From Candidatus Krumholzibacteriota bacterium (lineage in GTDB: Bacteria > Krumholzibacteriota > Krumholzibacteriia > JAJRXK01): a stretch of 64,000 nucleotides of DNA. The stretch is taken from positions 2,094-66,093 of the forward strand of contig JAJDAC010000057.1 in NCBI GenBank assembly GCA_029262065.1, read 5' to 3'. The position numbers were made by a program, and so were the translations under genes. Positions 8,676 through 36,197 of this stretch are shown piece by piece (the first letter of the stretch is position 1; every line of letters begins with the position of its first letter). The notes under the pieces are model-generated. The model searched no databases. It was given only the letters and a program-made list of their open reading frames with translations, and was not told the origin of the DNA.

Positions 8676-9674
8676 ATGTCGTTCAACCTATCCACGCGTT
8701 CGTTCACCAAGTTGCTCGATTTCAGCCCGCGCGAAATCCAATACCTGCTCGACCTGTCCCGGGACTTGAAACGGGCCAAGTACGCCGGCACCGAGCAGCA
8801 GTCGCTTCGGGGCAAGAACGTCGTTCTGATCTTCGAGAAAACGTCGACGCGCACGCGCTGCGCATTCGAAGTGGCCGCCTTCGACCAGGGTGCGAACGTT
8901 ACGTACATGGGCGGCGGATCCCAGATGGGTCACAAGGAAACGGTGAAGGACACCGCGCGTGTCCTGGGCCGCATGTACGACGGCATCGAGTTCCGCGGCT
9001 ACCGGCAGTCCGACGTGGAGGACCTGGCCAGGTTCTCAGGGGTTCCGGTCTGGAACGGTTTGACCGACGAGTTTCATCCCACGCAGATCCTGGCCGACTT
9101 CCTGACCATGCAGGAATACGGCCGAGGCAAGGAACTACATCAGATCAAGTTCGCGTACCTGGGCGATGCCCGGAACAACATGGGCAACTCGCTCATGGTC
9201 GGCGCCGCGAAGATGGGTATGGATGTACGCCTGGTGGCGCCGAAGCAGTTCTGGCCCACCGACGATCTGGTGAATCAGTGTCGGGACATCGCCCGCGAAA
9301 CCGGAGCGGTCATCTCCCTGACCCATGATGTCGCCGCTGGCGTCAAGGACGCCGACTTCCTCTACACCGACGTCTGGGTTTCCATGGGTGAAGCCAAGGA
9401 AGCCTGGGCCGAGCGCGTGAAACTGATGCAGCCCTACCAGATCAACCTGGATGTGATCGCCAAGACCCAGAATGCCGACGTGAAGTTCATGCACTGCCTA
9501 CCGGCGTTTCACAACAATGAGACCACGGTCGGCAAGGAAATCGAGGAGCAGCACGGGCTGAACGGGCTGGAAGTAAACGACGATGTGTTTGAGTCGGCGT
9601 ACAATATCTCGTTCGAGCAGGCCGAGAATCGCATGCACACGATCAAGGCCATCATGGTGGCGACCATGGGCTAG
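8676..9674 (+). CDS. argF: Ornithine carbamoyltransferase
   Basis: [20 protein letters not shown] and FMHCLP motifs. N-terminus ([20 protein letters not shown]) resembles catabolic ArcB-type enzymes. Confidence 0.95.
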
Positions 9675-10382
9675 CTAGCGCTGTCGAGCCCACTCGCGTG
9701 CAATGTCTCCAATGCGGTCCTCGCGTTGGGTCAGCTGGGGCAGCAGCGCAGCCGCGTCATCATTTCTGTCTCCGTGAACATACGCCACGTACGAGACGCA
9801 CAGACCATGGCCTCGCCACGGCTCGGGGATCGCTGCCAGGTCCAGGGAAGCCAGGACATCGATAGCGCCGACCGGGTCATCGGCGTGGGTGAGGGCCGAC
9901 GCAAGGTAGATCCGGCGCAGGGCTTCCATGGGCTTTGCGAACTCGCTACCTTGCAATGTGGAAGCTGCTTGCGTGTAGCGCTTGGCCTCGTAGTGCGCGA
10001 GGGCCGCTTCCAGTCGGGCGATGTCGCCGGTGTCAGATCGAAGCGGCTCGAGGACATTGGCCACGGGAAGCCGGTATTCGATGGGTTCGGACGCTCCGAA
10101 CTGCCACAGCAATACCATGGCCAACACCGCGGCGGCCGCGCCAGTCCAGGTTGCGTAGCGTGGCCAACGCCGCCGTAAGGGAGCGGGAAGTCGGTGGACA
10201 GCCGCGGGCGCTTCGCTGCGGGCGAGTTCCAGTTCGGCCGAACGCAGGCGGACGACTTCCGCGCATGATTCGCAACGGGCAATGTGATCGGCAAGCTCCG
10301 ACCGTAGCGGTTCTTCCAACAGGCCGTGAACCAGATCGACGACATGATCGGCCTCGAGATGCGTTTCACGATTCATGGTCAC
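9675..10382 (-). CDS. Zinc-finger (zf-HC2) membrane anti-sigma factor with periplasmic TPR-like domain
   Basis: HxxxCxxC motif (DHIARCESC), one TM helix (AAAAVLAMVLLW), helical C-terminus; overlaps the end of the upstream ECF sigma. Confidence 0.85.
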   Translation of the reverse strand: MTMNRETHLEADHVVDLVHGLLEEPLRSELADHIARCESCAEVVRLRSAELELARSEAPAAVHRLPAPLRRRWPRYATWTGAAAAVLAMVLLWQFGASEPIEYRLPVANVLEPLRSDTGDIARLEAALAHYEAKRYTQAASTLQGSEFAKPMEALRRIYLASALTHADDPVGAIDVLASLDLAAIPEPWRGHGLCVSYVAYVHGDRNDDAAALLPQLTQREDRIGDIAREWARQR

Positions 10383-11109
10383 TCCCCGGGTCCTGGGCGA
10401 AATTCACGCGGAATTCGCGCCAGAGCGCGCCGAACGTGCCCTGTGGCAGTTCCTTGGTTTCAAACCCCTTGTCCGCCATGCACGCGGACAACTTCTCGCG
10501 CGCGCGTAGCAGCGCGACGTCGACGGTGTTTGCGGAGCAATTCACCTCGGGATGATCGGCGATGGAGCGGCTGTTCATGTCATAGAACAGGCGGAAAAAC
10601 AAAATGGTCCGACTCCGTCGCTTCAACCCACGAAAACACTCGATCAATCCGTCCACGAATTCGCTTCGTTCTACTGTCTGCTGGGGCGAGGGACTTGTAT
10701 CGGTCAGCACCATTGTCGGCACTTTCTTATCGGGGTCGTCGGACGACTCCGCGAATTCAACCAGATCCACGCGGCCCTGCCGCCGAAGCTCATCGACCAG
10801 ACCGTTGCGGGCAGTCGTCGACACGAACGCGGCAATCCGGCCGGGCGCGTCCAGAAAGGGGCGCCATTCTCCGGTATCGGCCCGGCGCATCAAATCTGAC
10901 GCCTTCTGTGAAACCAGGTCCGCGTGGGTATCGGGGTCGATGCTCCCCATACGACTCGCGTGCAGGTGGGCGTAGTGCGAAAGGGCGGTGTGCAACAGGC
11001 CCCAGATCTGCTCGAGCAGATGGTTGCGGTGCTTGCGCGGGGAGTTCGCTAGAGCTTGGCTGATGTCAGCCAGCCGCTGCGGCCACTTGAGTCTCGAATC
11101 GCTGTGCAT
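10366..11109 (-). CDS. ECF-type sigma-70 family sigma factor
   Basis: Region-2-like AFVSTTARNGLVDELRR; region-4-like LFFRLFYDMNSRSIA...VDVALLRAREKL. Start uncertain. Confidence 0.85.
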   Translation of the reverse strand: MHSDSRLKWPQRLADISQALANSPRKHRNHLLEQIWGLLHTALSHYAHLHASRMGSIDPDTHADLVSQKASDLMRRADTGEWRPFLDAPGRIAAFVSTTARNGLVDELRRQGRVDLVEFAESSDDPDKKVPTMVLTDTSPSPQQTVERSEFVDGLIECFRGLKRRSRTILFFRLFYDMNSRSIADHPEVNCSANTVDVALLRAREKLSACMADKGFETKELPQGTFGALWREFRVNFAQDPGSDHES

Positions 11110-11178
11110 CGATCAAATGGCTTTCGGACCAGGGGCTCGTCGAGTGTAGCGCCCGCGATAGTGCGGTACAATACGACC

Positions 11179-13599
11179 ATGATCGGGGGCCCTTTCAAAC
11201 TGCTGTTTCTACTGGCCGCGATCATGCTCGCGGCTCCGCCCGTTCTTGCCGAGACCCTGCCGCCACCGCTCCAAACCCTCGCGGCTGCGCGGGACGAATA
11301 CCTCGACGACTGGGTCTTCGTATCCGCGCTAATATCCGCCTCGGATCTGCTGGCTGCCTGCAACCGGCAGTTCGGCCCCGCGGACCCACGCACCGTGGAA
11401 GCGTACTTCCGGACCGGTATGGTCTTCCACCGAATCGGCCGGGCTCGCGTGGCCGAGCGGATCTACGACCGCGCACTGCGTTGGATGCGACAACGAGCTC
11501 AGCCCAACCACGAGTTGTGGCTGGAAATGCTCGAGCGGCGGATGGTGCTCACGAAGGAACTGCGAATGGGTCCGGAAATCATGGCTGACGCACAGCCGAT
11601 GTTGAATCGAGCCATGGAATTGTTGGACCAAGGAAGCCTGCGGCGGACGAGCATCCACGCCGATCTTCTGCAGAGTTGGGGCAACATCCTGCGGCGATCG
11701 CGTCGGGTCGATGAGGCTGCATTACGCTACGAGGAGGCGGCTGAGATCCGTCGGAACGTCTCGCCGAATGGAACCCTTGCGCTGGCCGACAACCTCATCT
11801 GGCTCGCTCATCTCTACTCGAGCCGGCCGGACAACGCCGAGCTGGTGGAGCAATGTCTGGATGAGGCGCAACGGATCCTGGTGGCGCTCAAACGCACCGA
11901 CCATCCGCTACAGGCGACCCTTCTGCACTACCGCCTGCGAAGGCTCATGTCCGTGGGTGACGATGCCGCGAGCCGGGAGCTGATTGACCGACTGCGGCCG
12001 TTCCAGCCCCGTACCGATCAGGCCCTGCCGCCCGGATTCGGGCACCGTTTGGTTCCGGTGCACCTGCAATCCGAAGCCGAACTCGACCTGGTCCAGGGTC
12101 ATTTCGACCGTGCCTTCGAATCGTTGGCGGCAGTCGCGGGGCTCATTGCGACCGAACGGACCTATACGGGGCGCCATGTGGCCAGCCTCGTTCAGCCGTC
12201 CGCATCGCGGGAACTGCTCGCGCTGGAACCCTTGCCTGGCCGCCACGAAGGCGTGGGTGTCGACGCACGTGAGGTTCGTCGAATCGAACTCGAAGCGGCG
12301 CTGACCGGTGTCGAGCATGAGGATGGCGTGCATCGCACGTCCGACGGTGACTCCCTGATGCTTCGGCTTCAAGGTTGTCTCGACGAACGTACGGCGATCG
12401 TTGGATGGGTCCGGACCAAACTGCGGGATCCGGCCACGTGGGGAGTTGTGGTTCGCAACCGGGGCTCCGCGCACTGGGTCAAGATTCAGCATCCGATTCC
12501 CAGGAGTGTCGTCGAATACCGCTCAGCGCTTGAACATGCCAGTCAATGGCCGACGCGAATCGACTCAGACCCGCAGCTGAACCAGCTCGAGGTAGCCATT
12601 GGCGAAAGTTACCTGCAACCGCTTCTGGACCGGTTGGAGGGAGTTGATCGTATCGTCTGGATGCCGTTTGGGGAAACGCTTCGGCTTCCCGTCGAGAGCC
12701 TCAGGCTTCCCGATGGGACGCCGTTGGGGCTTGCGTTCGAGAGTGTGTACGCGCCGTCGGCGGAGGTGTTCGTGGACCTGATGAGCCAGCCTTCACGATA
12801 CCCCAGATCCCTGTTGGTGGTGGCCGACCCCGTGTTCTCGCCCGTCGATCAAGCGGGTGCCCCAGAATTGCTCGTGGATGCAAACACCATCGTTGGACCG
12901 GACGTGCTCCGGAGCGTGCTCGATGGTGAAAGAGACTTTGCCAGCCTACCCAGGTTGGCGTCGACCTGGCTCGAGGCCGAAGCGGTTGCGGGTTTGTTCG
13001 ATGAATCAACCGTGTTGCGTCGCGCCCGGGCGACCGAGAGTACGCTCACCGACATGGGCCTGGGCAAGACGCTTCAGGCCTTCGATGTGATCCACATTGC
13101 TACGCATGCGCTCTTCAATCGGCTTGCGCCGTCGGCCTCGGCGTTGGCTTTGACAGCCGATCGGGTTGTCGGTCGCCAGGCAAAGTCGGCATTCGGGGAT
13201 GGACTGCTCAGCGCCCGCGAAATTGGACTTTCGTGGTCGCTGGATGCAGACCTGGTCACGCTCAGTGGTTGTCAGACTGGGTTTCAGTCCTCCTTGAGTC
13301 GCGAGGCGGGAATTGGCTTCCTTGCGCCGATTCTCGAGGCCGGTGCGCGCGCTTTGCTCATGAGTCGCTGGAAGGTGCACGACCACGCTACGTATCTGTT
13401 CATGAGGCGCTTCTACGAGAACCGAACCGGCCGCTATCGCGACGCGCGACAGGGCAGCGTCGGCGATCCCATGAGCAAGGCGGGTGCTCTACGTGAGGCG
13501 CGGTCGTGGCTTCGTGCGCTCGAAGCCGATGACGGCACTACGCCCTACTCGCACCCCGTCTACTGGGCCTCCTTCTTCCTGGTCGGTGACCCCCGCTGA
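11179..13599 (+). CDS. Exported TPR-CHAT (caspase-like, C14 clan CD) protease
   Basis: Signal peptide MIGGPFKLLFLLAAIMLAAPPVLA (start re-picked at ATG 11179); CHAT dyad IHIATHA and VTLSGCQTG; terminal HPVYWASFFLVG. Confidence 0.85.
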   Translation: MIGGPFKLLFLLAAIMLAAPPVLAETLPPPLQTLAAARDEYLDDWVFVSALISASDLLAACNRQFGPADPRTVEAYFRTGMVFHRIGRARVAERIYDRALRWMRQRAQPNHELWLEMLERRMVLTKELRMGPEIMADAQPMLNRAMELLDQGSLRRTSIHADLLQSWGNILRRSRRVDEAALRYEEAAEIRRNVSPNGTLALADNLIWLAHLYSSRPDNAELVEQCLDEAQRILVALKRTDHPLQATLLHYRLRRLMSVGDDAASRELIDRLRPFQPRTDQALPPGFGHRLVPVHLQSEAELDLVQGHFDRAFESLAAVAGLIATERTYTGRHVASLVQPSASRELLALEPLPGRHEGVGVDAREVRRIELEAALTGVEHEDGVHRTSDGDSLMLRLQGCLDERTAIVGWVRTKLRDPATWGVVVRNRGSAHWVKIQHPIPRSVVEYRSALEHASQWPTRIDSDPQLNQLEVAIGESYLQPLLDRLEGVDRIVWMPFGETLRLPVESLRLPDGTPLGLAFESVYAPSAEVFVDLMSQPSRYPRSLLVVADPVFSPVDQAGAPELLVDANTIVGPDVLRSVLDGERDFASLPRLASTWLEAEAVAGLFDESTVLRRARATESTLTDMGLGKTLQAFDVIHIATHALFNRLAPSASALALTADRVVGRQAKSAFGDGLLSAREIGLSWSLDADLVTLSGCQTGFQSSLSREAGIGFLAPILEAGARALLMSRWKVHDHATYLFMRRFYENRTGRYRDARQGSVGDPMSKAGALREARSWLRALEADDGTTPYSHPVYWASFFLVGDPR

Positions 13600-19841: not shown

Positions 19842-20639
19842 TCAGAGCGTCACTTCTTCTGGACCCATTCCCTGTGGCGTGTAGTCCAGGTCGGTGGTCA
19901 TGAGAAACTTGTCGAACTCGAATCCATCTTCTCGCTGCGAGAAGCGAATGATGTGTTCTCCCGTCGTATCGATATCCACATAGATCGACCCGCGACATCC
20001 CGCGGTCTGGCCGCACGAATCCCGCTGGGAATTGGCCCAGGTCCATTCGAACTTTCCCGACGTCCACTGGATGCGCTCACCCGAACCGGGCCATGTGTCG
20101 TCGACACCCAGGTGCAGGCCGTTGTCTTCGGTTCCGGTGCTGTGCGCGCGCACCCATACATAGTACCGGCCGGTGGTTTCGAAGTTCACGCGGTAGGAAA
20201 CGGTGGGACCCTGACCCGGCGCACTGAAGAAGGCTCCCGGTCCGATCGGGTCGGCGTGGGTGACGCGGGTGTCCGGAAGGATCTCCAGGTAGGCTCCTCC
20301 GCTGGAGTCTTCCACGTGCTCGCCGTCGGGGTCGGGCGAGATGTTGGGAATCTCTCCGGCCTGTGTGAGTACCCAGTCGCGCGGATGTCCACGTAGGTCC
20401 ACCGCGAAGTAGTGCTCGGCTTCCACCGCCACCAATCCGTCGCGCTCCTGAAACGTCAGTTCGCTCGGCGGGTCATCGTTGGGCGGGTCATCGTTGGGTG
20501 GATCGTCGTTCGGCGGGTCGTCGTTGGGCGGGTCAAGCTCGATGAGCGCTTCCGGATCCACCACCTCGCAACCGGAAACAGTGATCCAGGTGATCAGGGC
20601 CAGGGCCGCTATGGCCATCGCAAACAGGCGTGTCGACAT
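19842..20639 (-). CDS. Putative lipoprotein with PPNDD linker and a GH115 C-terminal-like/CBM-like beta-sandwich
   Basis: Start at ATG 20639 after AAAGGAAG; hydrophobic signal ending VSG-C; VAVEAEHY...GRYYVWVRAHSTGTEDNGLHLG...REDGFEFDKFLMT. Confidence 0.7.
   Translation of the reverse strand: MSTRLFAMAIAALALITWITVSGCEVVDPEALIELDPPNDDPPNDDPPNDDPPNDDPPSELTFQERDGLVAVEAEHYFAVDLRGHPRDWVLTQAGEIPNISPDPDGEHVEDSSGGAYLEILPDTRVTHADPIGPGAFFSAPGQGPTVSYRVNFETTGRYYVWVRAHSTGTEDNGLHLGVDDTWPGSGERIQWTSGKFEWTWANSQRDSCGQTAGCRGSIYVDIDTTGEHIIRFSQREDGFEFDKFLMTTDLDYTPQGMGPEEVTL
20467..20534 (-). repeat. Tandem 15-bp coding repeat, (PPNDD)x4
   Basis: Unit ggcgggtcatcgttg with synonymous variants, read directly in the sequence. 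Confidence 0.9.
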
Positions 20640-20785
20640 TCGTGCTCTTCCTTTGAGAATGACCCAAGGTTGCTGGGCTCGCTTGCACGTAGCAGAGGTC
20701 GTGCCGGACACACGGGGAACGGGGCCCGGCTTTCCACGCGCGGAGAGTAGTTCCCCGTGAGGGAACGATCATCAACTCTCTGGAG

Positions 20786-20819
20786 ACAAGAAAGGAGGAC
20801 ACCCCGAAGGGTGCCCTCC
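20786..20819 (-). terminator. Intrinsic terminator for the 864-aa CTD gene
   Basis: Minus strand GGAGGGCACCC-TTCG-GGGTGTCCTCC then TTTCTTGT (cUUCGg loop, one G.U pair). Confidence 0.85.
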
Positions 20820-20865
20820 CGTACCCGACCCCGTCGGCAGGCGAGGTCGAGGGGGGTGTTGCCGG

Positions 20866-23460
20866 TCACTTGGCCAGAACCAGCTTCCGTGATTCCACCG
20901 CGCCGGTCGAAACCAGGCGTAGCATGTACACGCCGCTGGCTACCGACGCGCCGTTGTCGGCCGTGCCGTCCCACATGAGCGAATGACTCCCGGCCGCGAC
21001 GTCCGCGTCGAGCAGCGTACGCACCGTGCGTCCGCGCAGATCGTAGACGTGAGCGGTGACCTGGCCGGGGCGCTCCACCGAGAAGTCGACCTGCGTGCGC
21101 GGATTGAACGGGTTGGGATACGCGCTACCTACCTGCATGACGGCGCGAGCGGTGGTGGGTGTGGAAGTGGGAGAGTCCCAGGGCACCACGTTGATGAACT
21201 CCATCAGCTCGGTCATGTACTGGCCACGCGCGCCGTTGGGGGCCGACGGGTCGGGGGAGCTGCTGATCTCGGACGGATCGAACAGGCTGGCCAAGCGATG
21301 GCCCGAACCATTCTCGGTTGCGACCTGCACCACGTACGTCTCACCCGTGGGTCCCGTGAGTTGGTGGCTGATCTGCGCCCAGGTGGGTACCAGTTCCAGA
21401 TCAGGCGTGTCCTCGTTGCAACCGGGAAACGAAGTAGGCTGTTGCTCGAAGCTGGCGAAGCTGGTCGTGAACGGGTAGAAGCCCATGGTGTTGACCACGC
21501 CCGCGCCCGGAAGCTCTCGCTCTTCCACGACTTCGACGCCCAGTTCGTCGCGAAGGAAGTCGACCGCGGCCGGGCCCTGATCGTTCAGTGCCTTCAACAG
21601 ACGGCCGCCCATGAGTGCGAGCGCGCCGCCGGAGTTCTGCGCGTACTGCGCCAGCAATGAAAGGTCATCGTTCTTGCCGTTGCCGTTGGCGTTGGTTCCG
21701 TCACCCAGCACGCCGGGGCCGTGCTCGGCGCCAACTACCATGATCGCGCTGTAGCCCATGAGCTGGGCCAGCGTCGCGCCGCCACTGCCCGCGGCCGCGA
21801 TCGAGTTGCTGTACATGGAGGCGGGGTCGGCCACGCGGTACACGTCGTAGTCCAGGCCCTCGATCATGCCGCTCTCGCGCAGAGCCTGTTGCAGGGCATC
21901 GTCGTCTTCTTCGTTCAGAGCCTGGATAATGAGAAGCTGAGCCTGCACCACGCCCCACGATTCCTGCTTCACCGAGGGCAAGCCCTGCACGGTGTATCGG
22001 TGGTCGTAGTTCGTGCCGTCGTAGAGCGTGCTTGCATCTTCGGGCACGCTACCGATGTATCCCATCTGGTCCTCGGCTTCGATCATGTAGCGAATTTCGT
22101 CGCCGGGAAAAAAGAAACCGGCCGCGGGTACCTTGCTGTCCTTGGATAGTTCGTTCTCGGGAAAGTCGAAGCCGTACTCAAAGTTTCCCAGGGGCACGCC
22201 TTCGAGGAATCCGACCCAACGATTGCGACCTCGTTCGTCCACGCCGAAGTACTCGAGTCCCGGAGGCAGCTGGCGCACTTCGTCGAACATGGGGTTGGTT
22301 TCGATCACGTAGGTCATCATGGGGCCGCCGCTGGGGCCTGGTCCCACGATCGAACCACCGACCGTGTCGGGAAAGATCGATACGATCATCTGATCCTGGC
22401 GATCGATCCAGCCTGCCTGCGGACCGGCCAGATCCACGGCGGCGTCGGTGCGGACGAGCAGAGCGTTGGGGTCACCGTACCAGTCAGTGACACCGGCTTC
22501 GGAGAACGCATCCTGGAACGACGAGGCGTAGCTCGCGTCGATCCAGGGTTCGCCGTCACCAACGGCCATGGCACTTGCCTCGCCGTCGGTCGTTTGTGTG
22601 ACTGTTTCCATGGGAGCACCGCCGGCGCTGTAGCGGGGCACGTCGATGATATCGGTCACTACATAGTTCGACGCAGATATCGTGGTTCCGCCACCGGGAC
22701 TCTGTGAAATCTGTAGTTCTTCATTGGGGATACCCGACACCGTCAGGTCGCCACGAGGGTCCACGTTGAAGCTGAATTCCACACCGGGAACGTCGACCCA
22801 ATCTCCGTCGGCGTACTCGAAGCGATAGTTGACTCCCGCGCACACATTGGCCTTTCCCCGTCGGCCATCGAGTATCTGAATGGTCAGGTCCGTGAGTTCC
22901 ATGGTTCGTTCGAAGCTGAGCACCTCGACACCGTTCACGAATTTCGCGGGCGCATCGTTCTGCTTGGACTGATCGATCTCGTAGACCCCGTCGGCCGTGC
23001 CCTTGGCGTAGGCGTCGACCTTGCCCTTGCTGGTCGGACGGTTTGCGTAGATCCAGACGATGATCGTGGCATCGGAAAATGTTGCGTCGTTCGCGTACGC
23101 GTGAGCTTCGGCGCTGCCGCAGTTCTGCGAGCCGGGGGTATCTGACGTCCCCAGTTCCATGTCGCAATTGGCGGAGTCCCAGCCCGAGTCCTCGCATCCC
23201 CAGCCCCGCGCAGTTCCGGCGCCGCACTTTTCCGAAACTGCTCCGATGGAATAGTTGTCCCGGGCGATGTAATCGATTGCCCGGCCGATTCCAGCGATCG
23301 CGGCGACCACACCCAGGGCGATGAGGGCCGGGTGCTTGGCCATCGACGCAGGGTCAGGTTTCTCTCCCGCCGTGGCCGGTGCGGCCATTCCCGCGAGGAG
23401 AGTAATGATCAGGACCGAGGAAACAACCCGTCGAATGTTGGAAGTCGTGGAGCAGTACAT
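20866..23460 (-). CDS. Large secreted protein of unknown function with FlgD-Ig/T9SS-like CTD
   Basis: Signal peptide ending PATA; C-terminal AYPNPFNPRTQVDF...WDGTADNGASVASGVY; AGGAG RBS. Confidence 0.85.
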   Translation of the reverse strand: MYCSTTSNIRRVVSSVLIITLLAGMAAPATAGEKPDPASMAKHPALIALGVVAAIAGIGRAIDYIARDNYSIGAVSEKCGAGTARGWGCEDSGWDSANCDMELGTSDTPGSQNCGSAEAHAYANDATFSDATIIVWIYANRPTSKGKVDAYAKGTADGVYEIDQSKQNDAPAKFVNGVEVLSFERTMELTDLTIQILDGRRGKANVCAGVNYRFEYADGDWVDVPGVEFSFNVDPRGDLTVSGIPNEELQISQSPGGGTTISASNYVVTDIIDVPRYSAGGAPMETVTQTTDGEASAMAVGDGEPWIDASYASSFQDAFSEAGVTDWYGDPNALLVRTDAAVDLAGPQAGWIDRQDQMIVSIFPDTVGGSIVGPGPSGGPMMTYVIETNPMFDEVRQLPPGLEYFGVDERGRNRWVGFLEGVPLGNFEYGFDFPENELSKDSKVPAAGFFFPGDEIRYMIEAEDQMGYIGSVPEDASTLYDGTNYDHRYTVQGLPSVKQESWGVVQAQLLIIQALNEEDDDALQQALRESGMIEGLDYDVYRVADPASMYSNSIAAAGSGGATLAQLMGYSAIMVVGAEHGPGVLGDGTNANGNGKNDDLSLLAQYAQNSGGALALMGGRLLKALNDQGPAAVDFLRDELGVEVVEERELPGAGVVNTMGFYPFTTSFASFEQQPTSFPGCNEDTPDLELVPTWAQISHQLTGPTGETYVVQVATENGSGHRLASLFDPSEISSSPDPSAPNGARGQYMTELMEFINVVPWDSPTSTPTTARAVMQVGSAYPNPFNPRTQVDFSVERPGQVTAHVYDLRGRTVRTLLDADVAAGSHSLMWDGTADNGASVASGVYMLRLVSTGAVESRKLVLAK

Positions 23461-23573
23461 TTGGGAACTCCTGTTTCAGTCGAGGTAGTGAGTTGAGCCG
23501 CTCCCACTGAGCGACCTTCACCCTGCCTCGTCGCAGGAGTTGGGGGTTCGTTTGCCCCCAATCGAACTTTTTT

Positions 23574-24392
23574 TCAGGGGGCAGTGATTTCGAGGGAGAC
23601 GGTGGTGCGATCGGCCTCGCCGGTCCCCCAGTCCACCTGGAGCTGGTGGGCCCCGGGGCTCAGTGCCGCGGTAGGCACGGTCAGGGCTAGAACGCCAGAC
23701 TCGGGGTTGAATAGCCCATTCCAGGCATTTTGCGTCTCCCATACGACATTCTGTCCGGCCACCCGGGTCAGGGTTACCGCGAATCGATCGGGCGGATTTT
23801 CACTGGCCAGCAATGCCGGCGAATACTCCACCAGCAGCAGGTGATGGGAGGCGTCGGGCGTCAATTTGAGGGTCTGGCTGCCTGAGCGGGCCTGGCCCGT
23901 CAACAGGATCGAGGGGAGGGCCAGGTCGGCCGGCCCCTGGTTGTTTGGCCGCATGAGGGGGATAGCCATGAGCACGATGGTGGCGGCGAGGGCCACGGGG
24001 AGCGCCGGGGTCATGCGGATCGGCCGAAGCAATGTTCTTCGGATTCCGGCTCGGCCAGTCACTGCGCTGGTACTCTGCCGCGCGGTTTGCAGTTCGACCT
24101 TACAGGTGGGGCAGGCGCGTGCGTGCGCGGTCAGTCGCGCCAGCTCGCTGGTTTCGAGTTCGTCTTCGCCAAGCGACATTGCCACCGCAGCCAGGTCGTC
24201 TGCGCTGGGGTGATCGTCGAGCAAAGCCTCGAACTCGTCGGGTGAGATGCGAAGGAGCGATTGGATCGCCGCGATCCCACCCTGGCATTCAGTGCAGTTC
24301 TCCACGTGGGCGGCCACGCTGGTCCGGTTCTCGCCGGAGAGTTCATCGCGCACGAACTCAATCAGATACTGTGATGCGGACTCGTGATCCAA
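23574..24392 (-). CDS. Membrane anti-sigma factor with two tandem zf-HC2-like motifs
   Basis: AHVENCTEC and AHARACPTC; TM PALPVALAATIVLMAIPLM; beta-rich periplasmic domain. Confidence 0.82.
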   Translation of the reverse strand: MDHESASQYLIEFVRDELSGENRTSVAAHVENCTECQGGIAAIQSLLRISPDEFEALLDDHPSADDLAAVAMSLGEDELETSELARLTAHARACPTCKVELQTARQSTSAVTGRAGIRRTLLRPIRMTPALPVALAATIVLMAIPLMRPNNQGPADLALPSILLTGQARSGSQTLKLTPDASHHLLLVEYSPALLASENPPDRFAVTLTRVAGQNVVWETQNAWNGLFNPESGVLALTVPTAALSPGAHQLQVDWGTGEADRTTVSLEITAP

Positions 24393-24474
24393 ACCAGATC
24401 CTCGGGGTGTGCGCGTGATCCATCTCTATTGAAAGCGGTGCACTGGACAGTTCTCGGCCGCGTCAGCATACTCC

Positions 24475-25113
24475 ATGCATCCGCGACTCGCCCAGCGCCT
24501 GTCCTTCTTGGTCGTGGTTGGGGGCGATTCGTTTGGGCTTCGATCGAAAATTCTTCGCGACCCGGGGCAGCGAGCCTTGTCGAACGACCATCCAGACCAA
24601 AGTCTCCTACGCCGTTTTCTCATGGGTGACGATGATGCGTGTCGTGAAGTGGAGTCCTGGGCGCGTGACATCATCCGCTTCCAGTCCTATGGCCTTTCCA
24701 CCGAAGACCAACGCGATGTATTGCAGGACACACTTACTGGCCTGTGGCGGGCCGTGGGCCAACCTGATTTTGAGCTTCGTCACGGGCTGAAGGCTCTGGT
24801 CCGGCGCATTGCCACCGCGCGCTGCATCGATCGGTTGCGAAGACGGCGGCCCGAAACGGAAGTGCCTGAGTCGCTTCCCGATCCTGCACTGGATCCGTAC
24901 GCGCAGCTACTTAGCAGCGATATGCACGCCCGGGTGCGATTGGCGGTGCAACGTCTGAGCGAATCGTGTCGAGAGCTCATCCGCCGTCATTTCTACGAGG
25001 GCGTTGCGTATAAGGTGTTGGCCGACGCCGAAGAGCGGGCCGAGTCCACTATTCGCGTGCGCATGTTTGGTTGTATCAACAAGCTGCGCGCGATGGCGGC
25101 GGCCTGGGAGTAG
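24475..25113 (+). CDS. ECF-type sigma-70 family sigma factor
   Basis: DQRDVLQDTL...IATARCIDRLRR; LSESCRELIRRHFYEGVAY...STIRVRMFGC. True start may be TTG 24577. Confidence 0.88.
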   Translation: MHPRLAQRLSFLVVVGGDSFGLRSKILRDPGQRALSNDHPDQSLLRRFLMGDDDACREVESWARDIIRFQSYGLSTEDQRDVLQDTLTGLWRAVGQPDFELRHGLKALVRRIATARCIDRLRRRRPETEVPESLPDPALDPYAQLLSSDMHARVRLAVQRLSESCRELIRRHFYEGVAYKVLADAEERAESTIRVRMFGCINKLRAMAAAWE

Positions 25114-25121
25114 ACACGCGC

Positions 25122-28004
25122 CTACGGCGCGCCACTGATGGAGAATGCGGCCCAGTAGTAGGGGTGTTCCCACCCAGGAGTGGCTTTGACTCGCCGTTTC
25201 GCTTCCTGTAGGGCCCGGGCGATTTCGAAGTCGTCGGGTTGACCGACGGGTACATTCCGCAGGAACCCGGCCACCAGTTCGGTCGTGGCGCGATCGTCAA
25301 TGGCCCAACGCGTAGCAACCACCCGTTGCGCTCCCGCCGCCAGAAACCCGCGCCCGAGCGCCTGGGCTCCTTCGCCCAGGATAACCGCGCCGCGCTGGGT
25401 ATCACACGCCGACAGGACGGCCAGCCTACAGTTCAGGTTCAGCTCTCCCAGCTCGAACAGGTGAAGGGCGCCGTCGTTTCGCGCGTCGACAATGTTGGCC
25501 GGCGGACTCAGGGCCAACGCGGCGCGTAGGCCGTTTCGATTGCCGCGTACCACAGCGTGGGTTGCGAAGTGAACAATGCTGGCCTGACTCAACTCCGCGC
25601 GAACCCGCGCTTCGGTTGCGTCGGAACCCAACAACGTCGTGGTTTCTTCGGCGGCAAAAATTGCACGAACCGAATCCACCTCGGCCGCGGACCAAGGCAG
25701 CGCGCCCAGCGTGTCGAATACCATGGTCGAGCGTTTCGTGCCGGTGCCAGACGTAGGGTTTCCCACGCTGAGTATTCGTGCGTGTTCGCCAACCCGGTGG
25801 GGAGTTCGCGTCTGCAAGGCTCTCATGCTGGCTATGGAATCGATCACGTGCACGGCCGGTCCGCGGTTGATCCACATCTGGCCCTGATCGTCGAGGCTCA
25901 GCGCTTCGAAGGGCAGCGAGTGCAGGGACGCATCGGGAGAGATGATCACGGCCGGCACCCGGGAAATCTCATTCCAGATGGTCGCAGGCACCAGAATCCC
26001 GAACAGTGCTTGAGCGCGTTGTTCTCTTTGTTGTGTATCCCTGCGTCGGCGCAGGGCCGACGGTTCGCTCCACATGGCGAGCAAGCCGCGGGCGTTGTCG
26101 CGAGTCAGGGCGTTCGAACCCTCCCGCCGGGGGCCCGTGTCGATGCCGACGTCACCCAGGGCGCGTGTGCAGTCGTCCAACCCAAACGGACCGGGAGAGA
26201 TTCCCAGGCGCGACGCGTGGGTCTCTGTGGCCACCAATTCGAAGACCTGGATGTTCTTCTCGTCCGATGGCTTGAAGAACAGGTAGCTGTGCTCGCGTCC
26301 CACGAAATAGTTCATCAGAGGCGCGGACAACCCGTTTGCGTCATCTGAATCGAAACCCGTCGATCCTTGCGCCAAGATCGACATCCAGGCGGGTTGGTCG
26401 CGAAGCCTGGCTTCCATCGTGGCGTGAACGCTGGCCGTGAGACTGTCGATGGAGGTTTCGACCGCGGCCAGTTGTTCGCGTGTCGATGGGTCCCCCTCCA
26501 AGATCGACCAGCGTAGGGACACCGAGCGACGCGTGAGTTCAGCCAAACGCAAGCGCAGGGATTCCAGCTCGGTTGCGGTCTCGTCAGAGCTCGGGCCCCC
26601 CGCCTCGTTGCCCAGGCCAAGGGCAATGTGTTCTCGCAGGACGCGGCCTTTGGCCTGTTCCACCAGGGCAAAGGCCGCATCGATGTCACCCGACGAAACA
26701 TGTAGGTCTATGAGTCGCGCGTACGGACGCCGGAACATCGCCAGCAGTCGTGCTCGGCTGGTGGAAGAGCCGCCGATGGTCGTGCGGCCGCGTTCGATGA
26801 TCTCGATGGCGCGTTCCAGGTGTTCACGCGCGGCCGCGGTGTTCTCTTTGGACACTTCGTGTGCGGCCGCGAGGTCCAGCCCACGTACGCGGGCCATTGG
26901 TGCCACGCCCGACTCCGCGAGAATCCCAATGGCGCGCTCCAACTCGCTAGCCTGAGGTTCCGTCAGAGTTCCTTTGGCGTCGGTTGCGATTGCATCGATT
27001 TGGACAATGATGGCCAGAGCTAACTCGGGGTGTTCGATGCCATACACATCTTGTCGCAGCCGTCTTGCCAACTGCGCTTTCTGTGCCGCGGCATCGGCGT
27101 TTCCCGCCGCCAGAAGGTCTTCGGCTCCGTCCAGGAGGACCTGTGCGAGCAGCACGGGACGGGGCGGCCGGAGAGTGCGGACGACCTGCTCTGCTTCCTG
27201 GCGCAGGGACCACGCTTGTTGTGCATTGCCGCTTTCGGCGTGCAACTCGGCCAGTTGATTCAGCGGAAATACAATCCATGGCGAGTCGGCGGCGTAGGCC
27301 AGCCGTGAGAGTTCCAACGCCCGTTCGTAGAGCGGTCGCGCTTCATCGAAGCGAAGTTGCATGCGAAGGATCTCAGCCAGGTTCAGGTTCGCGTTGGCGG
27401 TTCGCGCATTCGTGCACTCGCGCTCGATGCTGATCGCGAGTGCCTTGCGAAGCAAGGGTTCGGCTTCGTCGTAGTTCTGTAGATCGCGGTGAAGGCCGGC
27501 GTAGTTGTTCAACAGCACCGCCTCGTCGCATCCGGGATCCTGCACGTTCGGCTGGCGATTCAATGCGTCTTCGAATGCCTTCCGGGCGGCATTGAGATCG
27601 CCCGCGGCACGGGAGCATTCGGCCAGGTTATTCAGCCGGAGCACCCAAAGAGAGTCGGGGGCGTCGACGCTGGCGAGGATTTCCACGCTACGCTGGAACT
27701 GAGCTCGAGCAAGAGCCGGTCGGTCGAGCTGGTAGTAGAGGTTGCCCAGAAGATCGTGAACCGCCTCGATCGTCAGGTCGTTGTTCGTGTCGATCGCCAC
27801 CAGCGACTCGGCGTGAGCCACGGCCAATTGCGTGTCGCCGGCGACCAGGGCATCGGCCAGACGCTGCTCCATCGTGGATTCTTGGTCTGCGTTGGTCAGA
27901 GCGGCCAACAATGAAACAAGCACCAAGGCCAACAGGCCCACCAGACTGGAGTGGCCGGCCGTTGTCGCTCGGTGTTGGTGTGACTGCGCACTCTGTGACG
28001 GCAT
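25122..28004 (-). CDS. Exported TPR-CHAT protease
   Basis: Start re-picked at ATG 28004; hydrophobic signal SLVGLLALVLVSLLAALTNA; TPR-10/12-like repeats (LNNLAE, LNNYAG, LNQLAE); dyad VHFATHA and AVLSACDT; terminal HPYYWAAFSISG. Confidence 0.88.
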   Translation of the reverse strand: MPSQSAQSHQHRATTAGHSSLVGLLALVLVSLLAALTNADQESTMEQRLADALVAGDTQLAVAHAESLVAIDTNNDLTIEAVHDLLGNLYYQLDRPALARAQFQRSVEILASVDAPDSLWVLRLNNLAECSRAAGDLNAARKAFEDALNRQPNVQDPGCDEAVLLNNYAGLHRDLQNYDEAEPLLRKALAISIERECTNARTANANLNLAEILRMQLRFDEARPLYERALELSRLAYAADSPWIVFPLNQLAELHAESGNAQQAWSLRQEAEQVVRTLRPPRPVLLAQVLLDGAEDLLAAGNADAAAQKAQLARRLRQDVYGIEHPELALAIIVQIDAIATDAKGTLTEPQASELERAIGILAESGVAPMARVRGLDLAAAHEVSKENTAAAREHLERAIEIIERGRTTIGGSSTSRARLLAMFRRPYARLIDLHVSSGDIDAAFALVEQAKGRVLREHIALGLGNEAGGPSSDETATELESLRLRLAELTRRSVSLRWSILEGDPSTREQLAAVETSIDSLTASVHATMEARLRDQPAWMSILAQGSTGFDSDDANGLSAPLMNYFVGREHSYLFFKPSDEKNIQVFELVATETHASRLGISPGPFGLDDCTRALGDVGIDTGPRREGSNALTRDNARGLLAMWSEPSALRRRRDTQQREQRAQALFGILVPATIWNEISRVPAVIISPDASLHSLPFEALSLDDQGQMWINRGPAVHVIDSIASMRALQTRTPHRVGEHARILSVGNPTSGTGTKRSTMVFDTLGALPWSAAEVDSVRAIFAAEETTTLLGSDATEARVRAELSQASIVHFATHAVVRGNRNGLRAALALSPPANIVDARNDGALHLFELGELNLNCRLAVLSACDTQRGAVILGEGAQALGRGFLAAGAQRVVATRWAIDDRATTELVAGFLRNVPVGQPDDFEIARALQEAKRRVKATPGWEHPYYWAAFSISGAP

Positions 28005-28223
28005 GCGCCTGCTGTCTGGATGAGAGGAACAGGAAAGTCCAAGCCTAGCGCACTTTCCGGCAAACGCCCCACGACTTCGCACGACTATATCACTAGCCCG
28101 GTGTTCCATAGGTGCCTCGCCTGGGCCCCCGATTGCCGCCTGGGTGCAAAGTCGTTTACGATCAATAGGTCGCCCAGACCCTGCGCGGCCCAACCAGCCA
28201 TTTCTGTCCCGGAGTTCTATGCG

Positions 28224-29270
28224 ATGTTTTGTTTCCCTAGCACCCGCATCCCAGCATCGCCGGCCCGCTTCGTAGTTCGGGTCGTGGGCCTCTGGCTGAT
28301 TCTGTTTGCTACCCAGGTATCCGTGGTTCGTCCGGTCGAGGCGATTCGCCTGATCTCCACGTCCATCGACCGTCAGTTCCCCGACGGATGGTGCCCGATC
28401 GAGAGTCGAGACGGACAACAAACCGAAACGCTGTGGGCTACCTTCACGGCGCAGAGTTCTTCGGTGCGCATGGTCGTCAGCGTGGACAATTTTTCTCCCG
28501 GCGCCTTTGGCGAGTGGATGAACAATCGGATCGACAACATCGCCGTGCTCGAGCGATCGGTCTACGCCGCCAACCGCGGCCCGGTTCCCAACTACGGAGA
28601 CTGCTACTTCGACGATCCCGATGCACCCGCGTTGTTGTACGACCCGGCGAGCCCGTTGACCACCGTCTACCTGGAGTTCTTCGACACCGATCCATCCGGT
28701 GATCCGGCGCGCGCCTGGTCCACGGGGACCTGGGATCCAAGCACCGGGTTCTCGGGCACGGCACCCCGCAACACCGTGAATGGTACGGATACCACGGGCG
28801 GGTCGTTGGTGTTGGGTGAGGAGAACGACGGCGTGGTGACTCTGGTTACCGAGCGTGAGGTCACGAACCTGTCGGTCGGCGTGGAGTACGTGGTCGTAGG
28901 GTGGTGGAGCGCCAACGTTGAAGGCGGACAACTCACGATCGAAGTGTTCGACGACAATGCGGTTGCGGCTCCTTCATTGCCGGGAGCCGGTCGGGCGATT
29001 CGTTCGATCTACCCAAACCCCGCGAACCCGCGCGTCCATGTGCAGCTGCGTCTGGAACGTTGGGAGTCGCCGCCGTCGCTGACGATTCTCGATGCGCTCG
29101 GGCGGCGAGTACGTACCTACGACTTGTCGGCCATGACGCCGGGTGATCAGGTTGTGACCTGGGACGGCCGGGACAACACGGGGCTTCCCGTGGCATCGGG
29201 TGTTTACTTTGCGCGACTGGAAGTGGCCGGGCACACCATCGACCGTGCGAAGATGGTGCTGGCAAAGTAG
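28224..29270 (+). CDS. Secreted protein with small beta-domains and FlgD-Ig/T9SS-like CTD
   Basis: GGAG RBS, ATG 28224; signal ending PVEA; C-terminal IYPNPANPRVHVQL...WDGRDNTGLPVASGVY. Confidence 0.8.
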   Translation: MFCFPSTRIPASPARFVVRVVGLWLILFATQVSVVRPVEAIRLISTSIDRQFPDGWCPIESRDGQQTETLWATFTAQSSSVRMVVSVDNFSPGAFGEWMNNRIDNIAVLERSVYAANRGPVPNYGDCYFDDPDAPALLYDPASPLTTVYLEFFDTDPSGDPARAWSTGTWDPSTGFSGTAPRNTVNGTDTTGGSLVLGEENDGVVTLVTEREVTNLSVGVEYVVVGWWSANVEGGQLTIEVFDDNAVAAPSLPGAGRAIRSIYPNPANPRVHVQLRLERWESPPSLTILDALGRRVRTYDLSAMTPGDQVVTWDGRDNTGLPVASGVYFARLEVAGHTIDRAKMVLAK

Positions 29271-34366: not shown

Positions 34367-35080
34367 CTAGAAGCGCGACTTCAGCGCGCCCCACGTAACC
34401 GACTCGCTGGCCAACACCGCCGAGCACGTCATGACCTCGGCGCCGGCGACGATCACGCAACCCCTGGGATCGTCGCAGTCCACGTATCCGGTGAGGATCA
34501 CTTCGGTGCCGGTATCGATGAACTCTTCCAAACTGGGCGACCGCACGGTGAGCAGTGGCTTCCAACACGAATCGGGACACGGCACGAACAAGGCGTCGGG
34601 CCCCAGGGAAAAGACCTGACCGATTCCCACGATTGCTTCAGCGCTCGGTTGCGCGTACGACACGCTACGGCCTAGTTCGAACGCACCGGCGAGTAGAAGC
34701 AGGCGACGGTCATCCACCGCGAACACTTCGTAGCGATGAATCGTATTGGGATCGATGGTGTCGTTGGCCTGGAACTCGTAGGTGCCGGCCGTGGGTAAGG
34801 CCAGGAGCTCCTCGGTGATGCGCGCTCGGTTGCACTCCCCTACCACGGTTCGGTAGATATCCAGACCCACGAGGTTGGGATTGAGATCGGACGCGAACGC
34901 CACGCTGAGCGATAGAGTTACGCCACCGCTGGGTTCGACGCTCGCCTCCAGGTCGAGACTGCTGCTGGTTGGCGGCTCGGAAGCATCGACAGACTGGCTC
35001 CACGTGATAGCCGTGGCCATGAGTAGCATCGATGACAGCACGAATACACGGATGTTCGTGGGCATCTGGGACCTCTTCAC
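34367..35080 (-). CDS. Secreted hypothetical protein ending in a TWGALKSRF tail
   Basis: Signal peptide ending VDA; several Cys; C-terminus AVLASESVTWGALKSRF*. Confidence 0.75.
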   Translation of the reverse strand: MKRSQMPTNIRVFVLSSMLLMATAITWSQSVDASEPPTSSSLDLEASVEPSGGVTLSLSVAFASDLNPNLVGLDIYRTVVGECNRARITEELLALPTAGTYEFQANDTIDPNTIHRYEVFAVDDRRLLLLAGAFELGRSVSYAQPSAEAIVGIGQVFSLGPDALFVPCPDSCWKPLLTVRSPSLEEFIDTGTEVILTGYVDCDDPRGCVIVAGAEVMTCSAVLASESVTWGALKSRF

Positions 35081-35247
35081 TTTGAAGTTTTCGAAACAGC
35101 TCTCAGGGGCGCGGAGGGAGCCGTCTATTCAAGAGGTGACGTGAGCCACCGAATCCGTGCACAAAAAGTGGGACTCTGCGATGATGGAAAGGTCACAGAA
35201 CACGCCACACACGTCGCGACGGCTGAGCGTCGGCACGGGTCGGTTAC

Positions 35248-35484
35248 ATGGGCGAGAGCCAGACCAACAACCCATTGCACGGAGTCACCCTGGAGCAGGT
35301 CGTGACCTACCTGGTCGAACGCTTCGGCTGGGTCGAACTCGGGCAACGAATCGACATCCGATGCTTCACGAGCGATCCTTCGGTCAAGTCCAGTCTCAAG
35401 TTCCTGCGCCGAACACCGTGGGCCAGGCAGAAGGTCGAGGATCTGTACATCCACACGAAGCGTGGTGACGTCTGGCGCTCGTAG
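35248..35484 (+). CDS. VF530/DUF2132 family DNA-binding protein
   Basis: [10 protein letters not shown]...[35 protein letters not shown] is the family signature. Confidence 0.92.
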
Positions 35485-35528
35485 CAGTAGGCTCGAAAGA
35501 GTTTCACAACGAACAAAGGGGTCCCAAG

Positions 35529-36197
35529 ATGTTTCGACGCATCCTTACTACGATGACAGTACTCATGGTGGCTTGCTCGATCGCTTTGCCCGTGCAAGCC
35601 GTCGTGACTTCGCTCCCGTTGCTTCAGGCCGGGGACGACGAACGAGAGGACGCTCTGGGCTGTTACGAGCCAGACTTTCTGGCGGGTACCTCTTCGACCG
35701 AAGTCAATTTGAAGGCGGGCGGCAACGCGTGGGGTTGTTCGTCGGAGTGGGCCATGAGTGTGGAGTTCGACCTGAGCGACATTCCCGTGGGGTTGGCGGT
35801 GTTCAACGCGACCTTCACCGTGCGGAAGACAGGATATGCCGACGACTCCATCGGCTTCTTTCCGCTGGGCCTGTTCGCCTATTCCGCCACCGGCGGAGTC
35901 GTCGGGGTGCCCCGGGCAAACCTGACTCTCGAGACCTTGCTGGATGCCGTATCGCCCTCGTCGCCCAATGTGGACCACTCGTTTGACGTGACCGAATTCA
36001 TACGTGATGCGGTGGACGACGGCGAGACCCGCGTGGGGCTGTTGCTGGCCAGCGTCTACAACGAAGCCGGCTACCACGACTTCATCTACCTGGGAGGCGC
36101 GGGCCACAGCTCACCGCCGCGCCTGGTCGTGGAGCACGAGGGGCCCGTTTCGACCGAGAGCAGCAGTTGGTCCGCGGTGAAGGCGCTCTTCCACTGA
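35529..36197 (+). CDS. Secreted DNRLRE/CBM96-like beta-sandwich protein ending in a SWSAVKALFH tail
   Basis: Signal peptide ending VQA; FDLSDIP...A...FDVTEFI...PRLVVE pattern; C-terminus GPVSTESSSWSAVKALFH*. Confidence 0.75.
   Translation: MFRRILTTMTVLMVACSIALPVQAVVTSLPLLQAGDDEREDALGCYEPDFLAGTSSTEVNLKAGGNAWGCSSEWAMSVEFDLSDIPVGLAVFNATFTVRKTGYADDSIGFFPLGLFAYSATGGVVGVPRANLTLETLLDAVSPSSPNVDHSFDVTEFIRDAVDDGETRVGLLLASVYNEAGYHDFIYLGGAGHSSPPRLVVEHEGPVSTESSSWSAVKALFH

Follow-up and report, generated by a model that had tools for sequence, protein, structure and literature searches.

We analysed a 64-kb stretch of DNA (the window; G+C content, ~62%) from the genome of a Candidatus Krumholzibacteriota bacterium (G000), in which positions 20866 to 29270 hold a five-gene cluster, module 2, that very probably works as a functional unit. 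Our reading, to which we assign a probability of roughly 0.5, is that module 2 is a lineage-specific unit built around a sigma factor of the extracytoplasmic function (ECF) type and composed of sigma2, the zinc anti-sigma (ZAS) protein anti2, the TPR-CHAT protease CHAT2 and CTDb, a cargo protein of the type IX secretion system (T9SS), with CTDa being a second cargo recruited in this genome. An initial annotation of the DNA had given the gene order as CTD(-), anti-sigma(-), sigma(+), TPR-CHAT(-), CTD(+), where CTD denotes a T9SS cargo gene with a C-terminal sorting domain, and all five genes were found in that order and on the strands claimed. Gene maps were drawn with a crude open reading frame (ORF) caller. 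The features of the locus are as follows.

20793-20820 (-): terminator-like hairpin after the CTDa stop codon, with a 12-bp stem, 8 GC pairs and a T-rich tail
20866-23460 (-): CTDa, T9SS type A cargo, 864 amino acids (FlgD_ig, 2.5e-10; TIGR04183)
23530-23554 (-): promoter-like motif CAAACG-N15-CGAC, 70 nt 5' of the CTDa start
23574-24392 (-): anti2, zinc anti-sigma, 272 amino acids (zf-HC2, 7.9e-07)
24511-24535 (-): promoter-like motif CAAACG-N15-CGAC, 119 nt 5' of the anti2 start
24475-25113 (+): sigma2, ECF sigma factor (Sigma70_r2, 2.1e-06; r4_2, 2e-03; TIGR02937)
25122-28004 (-): CHAT2, TPR-CHAT caspase-like protease, 960 amino acids (CHAT, 5.9e-56, plus TPR repeats)
28061-28085 (+): promoter-like motif CAAACG-N15-CGAC, 139 nt 5' of the CTDb start, in the divergent intergenic region of CHAT2 and CTDb
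28224-29270 (+): CTDb, T9SS cargo, 348 amino acids (FlgD_ig, 1.7e-11; TIGR04183)

Four of the five genes of module 2 have orthologues side by side in the metagenome contig L066, in the order CHAT(+), CTDb-like(-), sigma(-), anti-sigma(+), such that the CHAT and CTDb-like genes converge and the sigma and anti-sigma genes diverge. The L066 CHAT protein matched CHAT2 with 34% identity over 914 amino acids (E = 3e-126), better than any paralogue within the genome; identity was 53% for the sigma factor, 44% for the CTDb-like protein, whose gene lies downstream of that for sigma, and 37% for the anti-sigma factor. No close orthologue of CHAT2 was found among ten species-representative genomes of its family. 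Modules 1 and 2 of the window belong to separate module subfamilies. BLAST gave no match between the two sigma factors or between the two anti-sigma factors, and the CHAT domains were ~26% identical, in agreement with the low similarity that the initial annotation had noted. Its argument that the recurrence of such modules reflects a selected unit rather than a recent duplication is upheld both by the different subfamilies and by the four-gene unit of L066. Random variation of the CHAT and CTD neighbours among relatives was not seen, in that every member of the CTDb family adjoined a CHAT gene.

The association extends across the genome (5.77 Mb), which contains 32 CHAT genes, 53 Sigma70_r2 matches (76 sigma-like ORFs with iterated profiles) and ~284 ORFs ending in a CTD, the latter making up about 6% of all genes. 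A genome-wide count of such modules, as proposed in the initial annotation, showed that 20 of the 32 CHAT genes have a sigma gene no more than two genes away, compared with a background of 6.7% (binomial p = 3e-16). A CTD gene was present within ±3 genes of 20 of the 32 CHAT genes versus a background of 29% (p = 8e-5), and 33 of the 284 CTD genes lay ≤3.5 kb from a CHAT gene versus a genome fraction of 5.5%. We also examined 40 CHAT loci of relatives in the same family and class (17 genomes); of the 41 full-length CHAT genes there, 29 had a sigma gene ≤2.5 kb away. None of nine loci from other phyla, used as a negative control, had one nearby. A Mantel analysis of 19 modules yielded a correlation of 0.42 (rho; p = 2e-4) between sigma and CHAT similarities, with values of 0.31 for sigma and the middle gene and 0.35 for the middle gene and CHAT. 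This co-variation indicates that the modules duplicate as units.

The middle gene of these modules is of three kinds. One encodes a zinc anti-sigma factor that crosses the membrane once, as in modules 1 and 2 among others; a second encodes a Ser/Thr kinase that also has a single membrane pass, with DUF4384 as its extracytoplasmic part (Pkinase, 2e-49; DUF4384, 4e-10); and the third encodes a small soluble ZAS-like protein. A membrane-spanning middle gene was accompanied by a CHAT protein with a signal sequence in 12 of 12 modules (two of them recognised on inspection alone) and a soluble anti-sigma by a CHAT protein without one in 7 of 7, although the compartment groups are also clades and these fractions thus overstate the independence of the cases. 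Such a compartment rule is what a direct functional link within one compartment predicts.

Scores for the individual proteins were in accord with the roles assigned to them. Sigma2 matched TIGR02937 with 64.8 bits (cut-off, 42.9) and was classed on this basis as an ECF (group IV) sigma factor, a type of about 170-200 amino acids that has regions 2 and 4 alone; among the Pfam domains, region 2 scored above its cut-off and r4_2 below (18.1 bits; cut-off, 25.7). Its true start may be an in-frame TTG at 24577, giving 178 amino acids, and it is 38-40% identical to the corresponding sigma factors of genomes G007 and G005. The zf-HC2 match of anti2 (29.5 bits; cut-off, 22.2) placed its N-terminal region among ZAS domains. 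Two HxxxCxxC motifs are arranged in tandem there, the second at residues ~90-98, and a single predicted transmembrane (TM) helix at ~125-147 is followed by a periplasmic domain of ~120 amino acids. An AlphaFold2 (AF2) model obtained from the single sequence, of low confidence (mean pLDDT, ~50), consisted of helices, the TM segment and then seven strands, so that the domain of ~120 residues was all-beta. The possibility that anti2 is an orphan was rejected, given that a word-index search returned anti2 alone but exhaustive HMMER searching retrieved 341 cluster representatives at E ≤ 1e-3, many of them full-length and of similar size. Return of the query alone by the indexed search does not, as this case illustrates, equate to orphan status.

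The open frame for CHAT2 (25122-28931) is over-extended, and the likely start is the ATG at 28004, which yields a signal-peptide-like N-terminus (MPSQ...LVGLLALVLVSLLAALTNA/DQ). When 16 CHAT domains of the genome were aligned, residues His816 (HFATH) and Cys867 (LSACDT) fell in invariant columns, the overall identity of these paralogues to CHAT2 being 23-39%. The description of CHAT2 in the initial annotation as an exported, active protease is consistent with this N-terminus and the intact His/Cys dyad, activity being predicted. The gene converges with sigma2, with a gap of 8 bp between the stop codons. The best match in the PDB for the CHAT profile of this genome was Csx29 (2.7e-8). An RseP-type M50 protease is encoded elsewhere in the genome. 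Both cargo proteins end in the same FlgD_ig/T9SS type A sorting domain (TIGR04183: CTDa, 32.0 bits; CTDb, 24.6 bits; cut-off, 23), with CTDa also possessing a signal-peptide-like N-terminus, and the genome encodes T9SS machinery as judged by its PorU sortase (NF033707, 490 bits; cut-off, 420).

The divergent transcription of sigma2 and anti2, described in the initial annotation as unusual, proved to be so. Among ZAS genes located next to a sigma gene, a single pair of the 15 in this genome, that of module 2, was divergent; the 14 other pairs here and all 14 in the loci of relatives were co-directional. We then inspected about a dozen gene contexts of the anti2 family, and sigma was on the strand opposite to anti-sigma in all 10 informative loci. 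The two genes were adjacent and divergent in G007, G005, L066/L067, L068, L070 and L072, and probably also in L064, in which the upstream fragment resembles the N-terminus of sigma2; in L071 and L073, sigma was one or two genes distant. The contig of L069 was too short for the sigma strand to be judged. The divergent layout is thus a conserved hallmark of the anti2 family. A TPR-CHAT gene lay ≤2 genes from sigma in seven of the eight anti2-family loci with sufficient flanking sequence. Anti2, a putative inhibitor of sigma2, is encoded next to it, and co-occurrence with sigma2-like genes is seen across the anti2 family. A recent inversion was also considered as the origin of the divergence and was discarded, as no inverted repeats flank sigma2.

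The initial annotation had suggested a search for shared upstream motifs, and one was found 5' of both CTDa (23460) and CTDb (28224). The element CAAACG-N15-CGAC occurs in three exact copies in the window, all of them in module 2 and oriented toward anti2, CTDa and CTDb, respectively. There are 37 copies in the whole genome, of which 32 fall within long ORFs. In 4000 random triples of real intergenic segments, none shared any common 6+4 element with a spacing of 15-17. No copy precedes sigma2 or CHAT2, even with one mismatch allowed; a sigma-70-like element (TGGACA-17-CATACT) precedes sigma2, with such matches being no more frequent than expected by chance. In G007, G005, L068 and L071, the core AAAC-N16-CGAC likewise precedes the start of the anti-sigma gene, by 101-168 nt, and L072 has a variant (GAAC-N16-CGAC) upstream of its anti-sigma gene. 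These four sites account for four of the seven strict copies of the core in 158 kb of strand sequence of these loci, with those of G005 and G007 not being independent because the two genomes belong to the same genus. The geometry (AAC-N16-CGAC) is of the ECF type. On these sequence grounds, we lean toward CAAACG-N15-CGAC being the promoter recognised by sigma2. A 9-bp hairpin at 23539-23562 (GTTGGGGG...CCCCCAAT) overlaps the -35 part of the CTDa motif directly after the anti2 stop codon, where it could reduce read-through out of anti2 or affect how the CTDa promoter works.

The two cargo genes differ in their conservation. The beta-rich N-terminal domain of CTDb defines a family (alignment A2) that was matched in 4 of the 151 genomes of the class that were searched. 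Its members are located in this genome at C2 (two copies), C22, C27c and module 2, as well as in G001, G021 (two copies) and G061, and all of them, like the L066 orthologue, adjoin a CHAT gene. The family was found with a single CHAT clade, whether the transducer was a ZAS anti-sigma or a Ser/Thr kinase. An AF2 model of CTDb from a five-sequence alignment had a mean pLDDT of ~50. CTDa belongs to a family with 14 paralogues in the genome and a core spanning residues 300-785, six of the 14 members being located ≤3.5 kb from a CHAT gene compared with 27 of the 270 other CTD genes (Fisher p = 0.0024). Sequence searches of Pfam, NCBIfam and the PDB with CTDa revealed nothing beyond the CTD, and an indexed word search with its core returned the query alone, as did the same search when it missed the relatives of anti2.

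Two CTDb orthologues from different organisms, L066:3283-4038(-) and L060:9626-10501(+), terminate in ...SRSWGTLKAVYRR and ...STWGAVKALHNGRR, respectively, in place of the Ig-like CTD. This tail is the same short ending that has been proposed as a second sorting signal at 34367-36197 of the window, and the existence of one cargo family with either ending supports the idea of such a putative second signal.

On the basis of these observations, we propose that sigma2 would transcribe anti2, CTDa and CTDb from the three copies of the motif, with sigma2 and CHAT2, which have no copy, being expressed separately. A divergent anti-sigma gene that bears the motif, next to a sigma gene that does not, suggests that sigma2 would induce its own brake in anti2 (negative feedback), with no positive autoregulation of the usual kind. 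The L066 CTDb-like gene, being directly downstream of sigma, also fits control by sigma. As an exported protein whose gene lacks the motif, CHAT2 is best read as an input. It would act in the periplasm, the compartment of the C-terminal domain of anti2, where its TPR array would most probably bind a ligand, possibly the co-inherited cargo CTDb, whereupon its caspase-like domain would cut or otherwise inactivate anti2; cleavage by the RseP-type site-2 protease would come next, followed by the release of sigma2. By analogy with known systems, we give even odds to CHAT2 being the upstream input. That it acts specifically by cleaving anti2 is a tentative and rather doubtful proposal, because dyad mutants of DdvA, a protein that combines ZAS and TPR-CHAT parts in one chain, have no phenotype, sister CHAT proteins are paired with kinases, and CHAT partners have been swapped. 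The strict linkage of CTDb to CHAT, a small cargo family being inherited only with the protease, suggests that the cargo may be a ligand or substrate of CHAT. A further and more speculative idea, which we consider improbable, is that exported TPR-CHAT proteins and CTDb-family cargo together form a cargo- or secretion-monitoring sensor, in which the protease would sense, in the periplasm, what state its own T9SS cargo is in and pass this on through interchangeable single-pass transducers (the divergent ZAS anti-sigma of module 2 or the Ser/Thr kinases of sister modules) to a private ECF sigma factor, which would transcribe cargo and brake. If this were true, dozens of private feedback loops would govern the deployment of surface proteins in this lineage.

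Several observations weigh against the view of module 2 as a lineage-specific sigma2-anti2-CHAT2-CTDb unit with CHAT2 as its input. The nearest in-genome paralogues of CHAT2 (~30% identity) lie within sigma-kinase-CHAT-cargo operons and are partnered by Ser/Thr kinases rather than anti-sigma factors, which would fit a CHAT role more general than anti-sigma cleavage; it is likely that ZAS and kinase transducers were exchanged at some earlier time. In G007 and L072, a sigma2/anti2-like pair is accompanied by a CHAT protein of the module-1 type (31% identity over 649 amino acids to CHAT1), so that the CHAT partner of the sigma2/anti2 lineage has been exchanged at least once. In L071, the place of CHAT is taken by a 1052-amino acid DUF3857/transglutaminase-core/TPR protein (8890-12048, +) that is encoded divergently from sigma and represents a different cysteine-protease fold with TPR repeats at the same position. 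Together, these replacements mean that the specificity between CHAT and anti-sigma may be loose. In L066/L067, L070, L073 and L064, the anti-sigma gene is not preceded by the core motif, and no comparable shared promoter motif was detected in the module-1 subfamily. A generic comparison of motif sharing within and between modules likewise showed no enrichment (4/408 versus 0.74%). Both of the flanking CTD genes emphasised in the initial annotation are present, but CTDa is outside the conserved core: L066 lacks an orthologue and carries an unrelated CTD cargo gene instead.

Some of these same facts would be expected if CHAT2 were an output or maturation enzyme that processes or controls T9SS cargo (the CTDb family, perhaps also CTDa) in the periplasm, with sigma2 and anti2 regulating the cargo genes and sensing something else through the periplasmic domain of anti2. 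The CTDb family strictly accompanies a single CHAT clade irrespective of the transducer, different genera pair the sigma2/anti2 lineage with different CHAT proteins, and CTD cargo is enriched near CHAT genes in general. We nevertheless regard this explanation as unlikely. CHAT2 lacks the sigma2-type motif that anti2 and both cargo genes possess and so does not resemble a co-regulated output. Neighbourhood maps of the seven cytoplasmic modules showed CTD cargo directly beside the sigma/anti-sigma/CHAT block in none of them, which makes the sigma regulator, and not cargo, the constant partner of CHAT. Moreover, the protease stands upstream of sigma in the two TPR-CHAT/sigma systems known so far (PMC11506125, PMC10028731).

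If CHAT2 does act upstream, it need not do so as a protease. It might be a co-receptor with a ligand-binding TPR array that retains or lets go of the periplasmic domain of anti2, with another protease or a conformational change freeing sigma2 and the dyad serving for autoprocessing or being vestigial here. The DdvA dyad mutants H862A and C907A behave like the wild type, and the active site of DdvA is described as incomplete and in a resting state (PMC11506125); in addition, cleavage is not an obvious mechanism for the kinases that the clade of CHAT2 partners. The invariance of both His and Cys in all 16 paralogues, despite such low overall identity, is indicative of selection on catalysis, and a purely non-proteolytic role thus appears to us quite improbable. 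Finally, in a genome so crowded with paralogues of CHAT, sigma and CTD, the five genes might have come together by chance with no functional link. Some adjacency is indeed expected from the numbers of CTD genes and sigma-like ORFs, and CTDa is not conserved in L066. Such a chance juxtaposition is strongly disfavoured by the enrichment statistics, the four-gene unit of L066, the exclusive linkage of CTDb to CHAT and the shared motif.

Two other types of module deserve separate description. The seven cytoplasmic modules comprise a sigma gene, a gene for a soluble ZAS-like protein (150-260 amino acids, no TM helix) and a gene for a CHAT protein of ~920 amino acids without a signal peptide. All are in G000:

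C48:60140-64508, cytoplasmic module
C27:343785-347640, cytoplasmic module
C27:430023-433791, cytoplasmic module
C27:497636-501695, cytoplasmic module
C27:248350-252384, cytoplasmic module
C50:48941-52895, cytoplasmic module
C17:155886-160149, cytoplasmic module

The kinase operons encode a sigma factor, a single-pass Ser/Thr kinase with DUF4384, an exported TPR-CHAT protein and CTDb-family cargo:

G000 C2:90329-98342, kinase operon
G000 C22:87151-95043, kinase operon
G000 C27:479546-484954, kinase operon
G000 C48:242069-247675, kinase operon
L061 (G021), kinase operon
L060 (G061), kinase operon

A 936-amino acid ORF in the Planctomycetota contig JAHEIK010000372.1 (L008, 601-3411, +) combines a CHAT profile match with a protein-kinase catalytic-loop motif and may be a fused kinase-CHAT protein. 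Orphan CHAT genes, without sigma nearby, constitute about one-third of the CHAT genes of the genome. The window itself contains a third exported TPR-CHAT gene (45907-49044, +; 1045 amino acids; CHAT E = 2e-64) that has no sigma gene nearby and adjoins genes for an NtrC-type regulator and topoisomerase VI. Module 2 is flanked by T9SS cargo, GH115_C-like, AzlD and FG-GAP cargo genes. The gene with a GH115_C-like C-terminal domain (19842-20711, -) includes five tandem 15-nt repeats (GGCGGGTCATCGTTG) at 20461-20535, whose product is a short linker of acidic/proline repeats. Pfam scans of 8-34 kb of the window around module 2 revealed no cas or CBASS domains.

The closest known counterpart of module 2 is the DdvA/DdvS system of Myxococcus xanthus (PMC6061681, PMC11506125). 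Both pair an ECF sigma factor with a single-pass zinc anti-sigma, both have a periplasmic TPR-CHAT module that bears a His/Cys dyad, and an RseP-type site-2 protease is available in both. The CHAT domain of DdvA is of a dimeric type without the three-helix active-site motif; according to one proposal, it would cut the linker ahead of RseP (PMC11506125). The promoter recognised by DdvS in Myxococcus, GTAA-N16-CGT (PMC6061681), is similar in geometry to AAAC-N16-CGAC of module 2. DdvA, however, carries ZAS, TM helix and TPR-CHAT in a single polypeptide, whereas anti2 (272 amino acids) has neither TPR nor CHAT and CHAT2 is a separate exported protein encoded beyond sigma2. DdvA and DdvS are encoded in a translationally coupled operon rather than divergently, and the DdvA regulon is a CRISPR-Cas/CBASS defence island, whereas the neighbours and likely targets of module 2 are T9SS cargo genes. 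Modules of the present kind have also expanded to more than 20 per genome, unlike DdvA/DdvS, and DdvA was not among the PDB matches of this genome's CHAT profile at E ≤ 0.1. By this analogy, module 2 would be a split, two-gene counterpart of the fused DdvA and would stand outside the DdvA family, which is defined by a single polypeptide.

The type III-E craspase offers a parallel to the proposed mechanism, in that its TPR-CHAT protein Csx29 cuts Csx30 (PMC10028731), an inhibitor that controls an ECF sigma factor (CASP-sigma). The craspase TPR-CHAT is bound to Cas7-11 and encoded in a CRISPR locus, whereas module 2 has no Cas genes nearby and CHAT2 has a signal peptide; the inhibitor in module 2 is a ZAS membrane protein rather than Csx30. 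The seven cytoplasmic modules follow the same logic as the Csx29-Csx30-sigma system without a CRISPR context. Module 2 can also be likened to the classical pathways in which ECF anti-sigma factors undergo regulated intramembrane proteolysis, DegS/RseP-RseA and PrsW/RasP-RsiW. There, a single-pass anti-sigma with a periplasmic domain is processed by a dedicated site-1 enzyme in the periplasm and by a site-2 protease of the M50 type. The site-1 enzyme proposed for module 2 differs from these in being a caspase-fold TPR-CHAT that is encoded in, and duplicated with, the module. The ECF54 group, described as lacking anti-sigma factors, can have a carboxypeptidase, subtilase or CHAT gene in its neighbourhood (PMC8999054), and kinases occur near several ECF groups such as ECF43 and similar (PMC7826278, PMC8999054). 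The sigma-kinase-CHAT modules of this genome combine both features, and module 2 differs from ECF54 in having an anti-sigma factor. In the literature that we searched, there was no description of a unit of sigma, ZAS anti-sigma, exported CHAT and T9SS cargo, or of its divergent layout.

Module 2 thus presents the logic of DdvA as separable parts that have undergone more than 20 duplications within a single genome, in periplasmic as well as cytoplasmic versions and coupled to either zinc anti-sigma factors or Ser/Thr kinases. It also offers testable handles in the candidate sigma2 promoter at three targets, the family-wide divergent layout and the cargo family inherited only with the protease. 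Given that protease, anti-sigma and cargo are encoded by separate genes, they can be expressed individually and mixed, and the questions raised by DdvA, namely whether CHAT performs the site-1 cleavage and what its trigger is, can therefore be tested directly.

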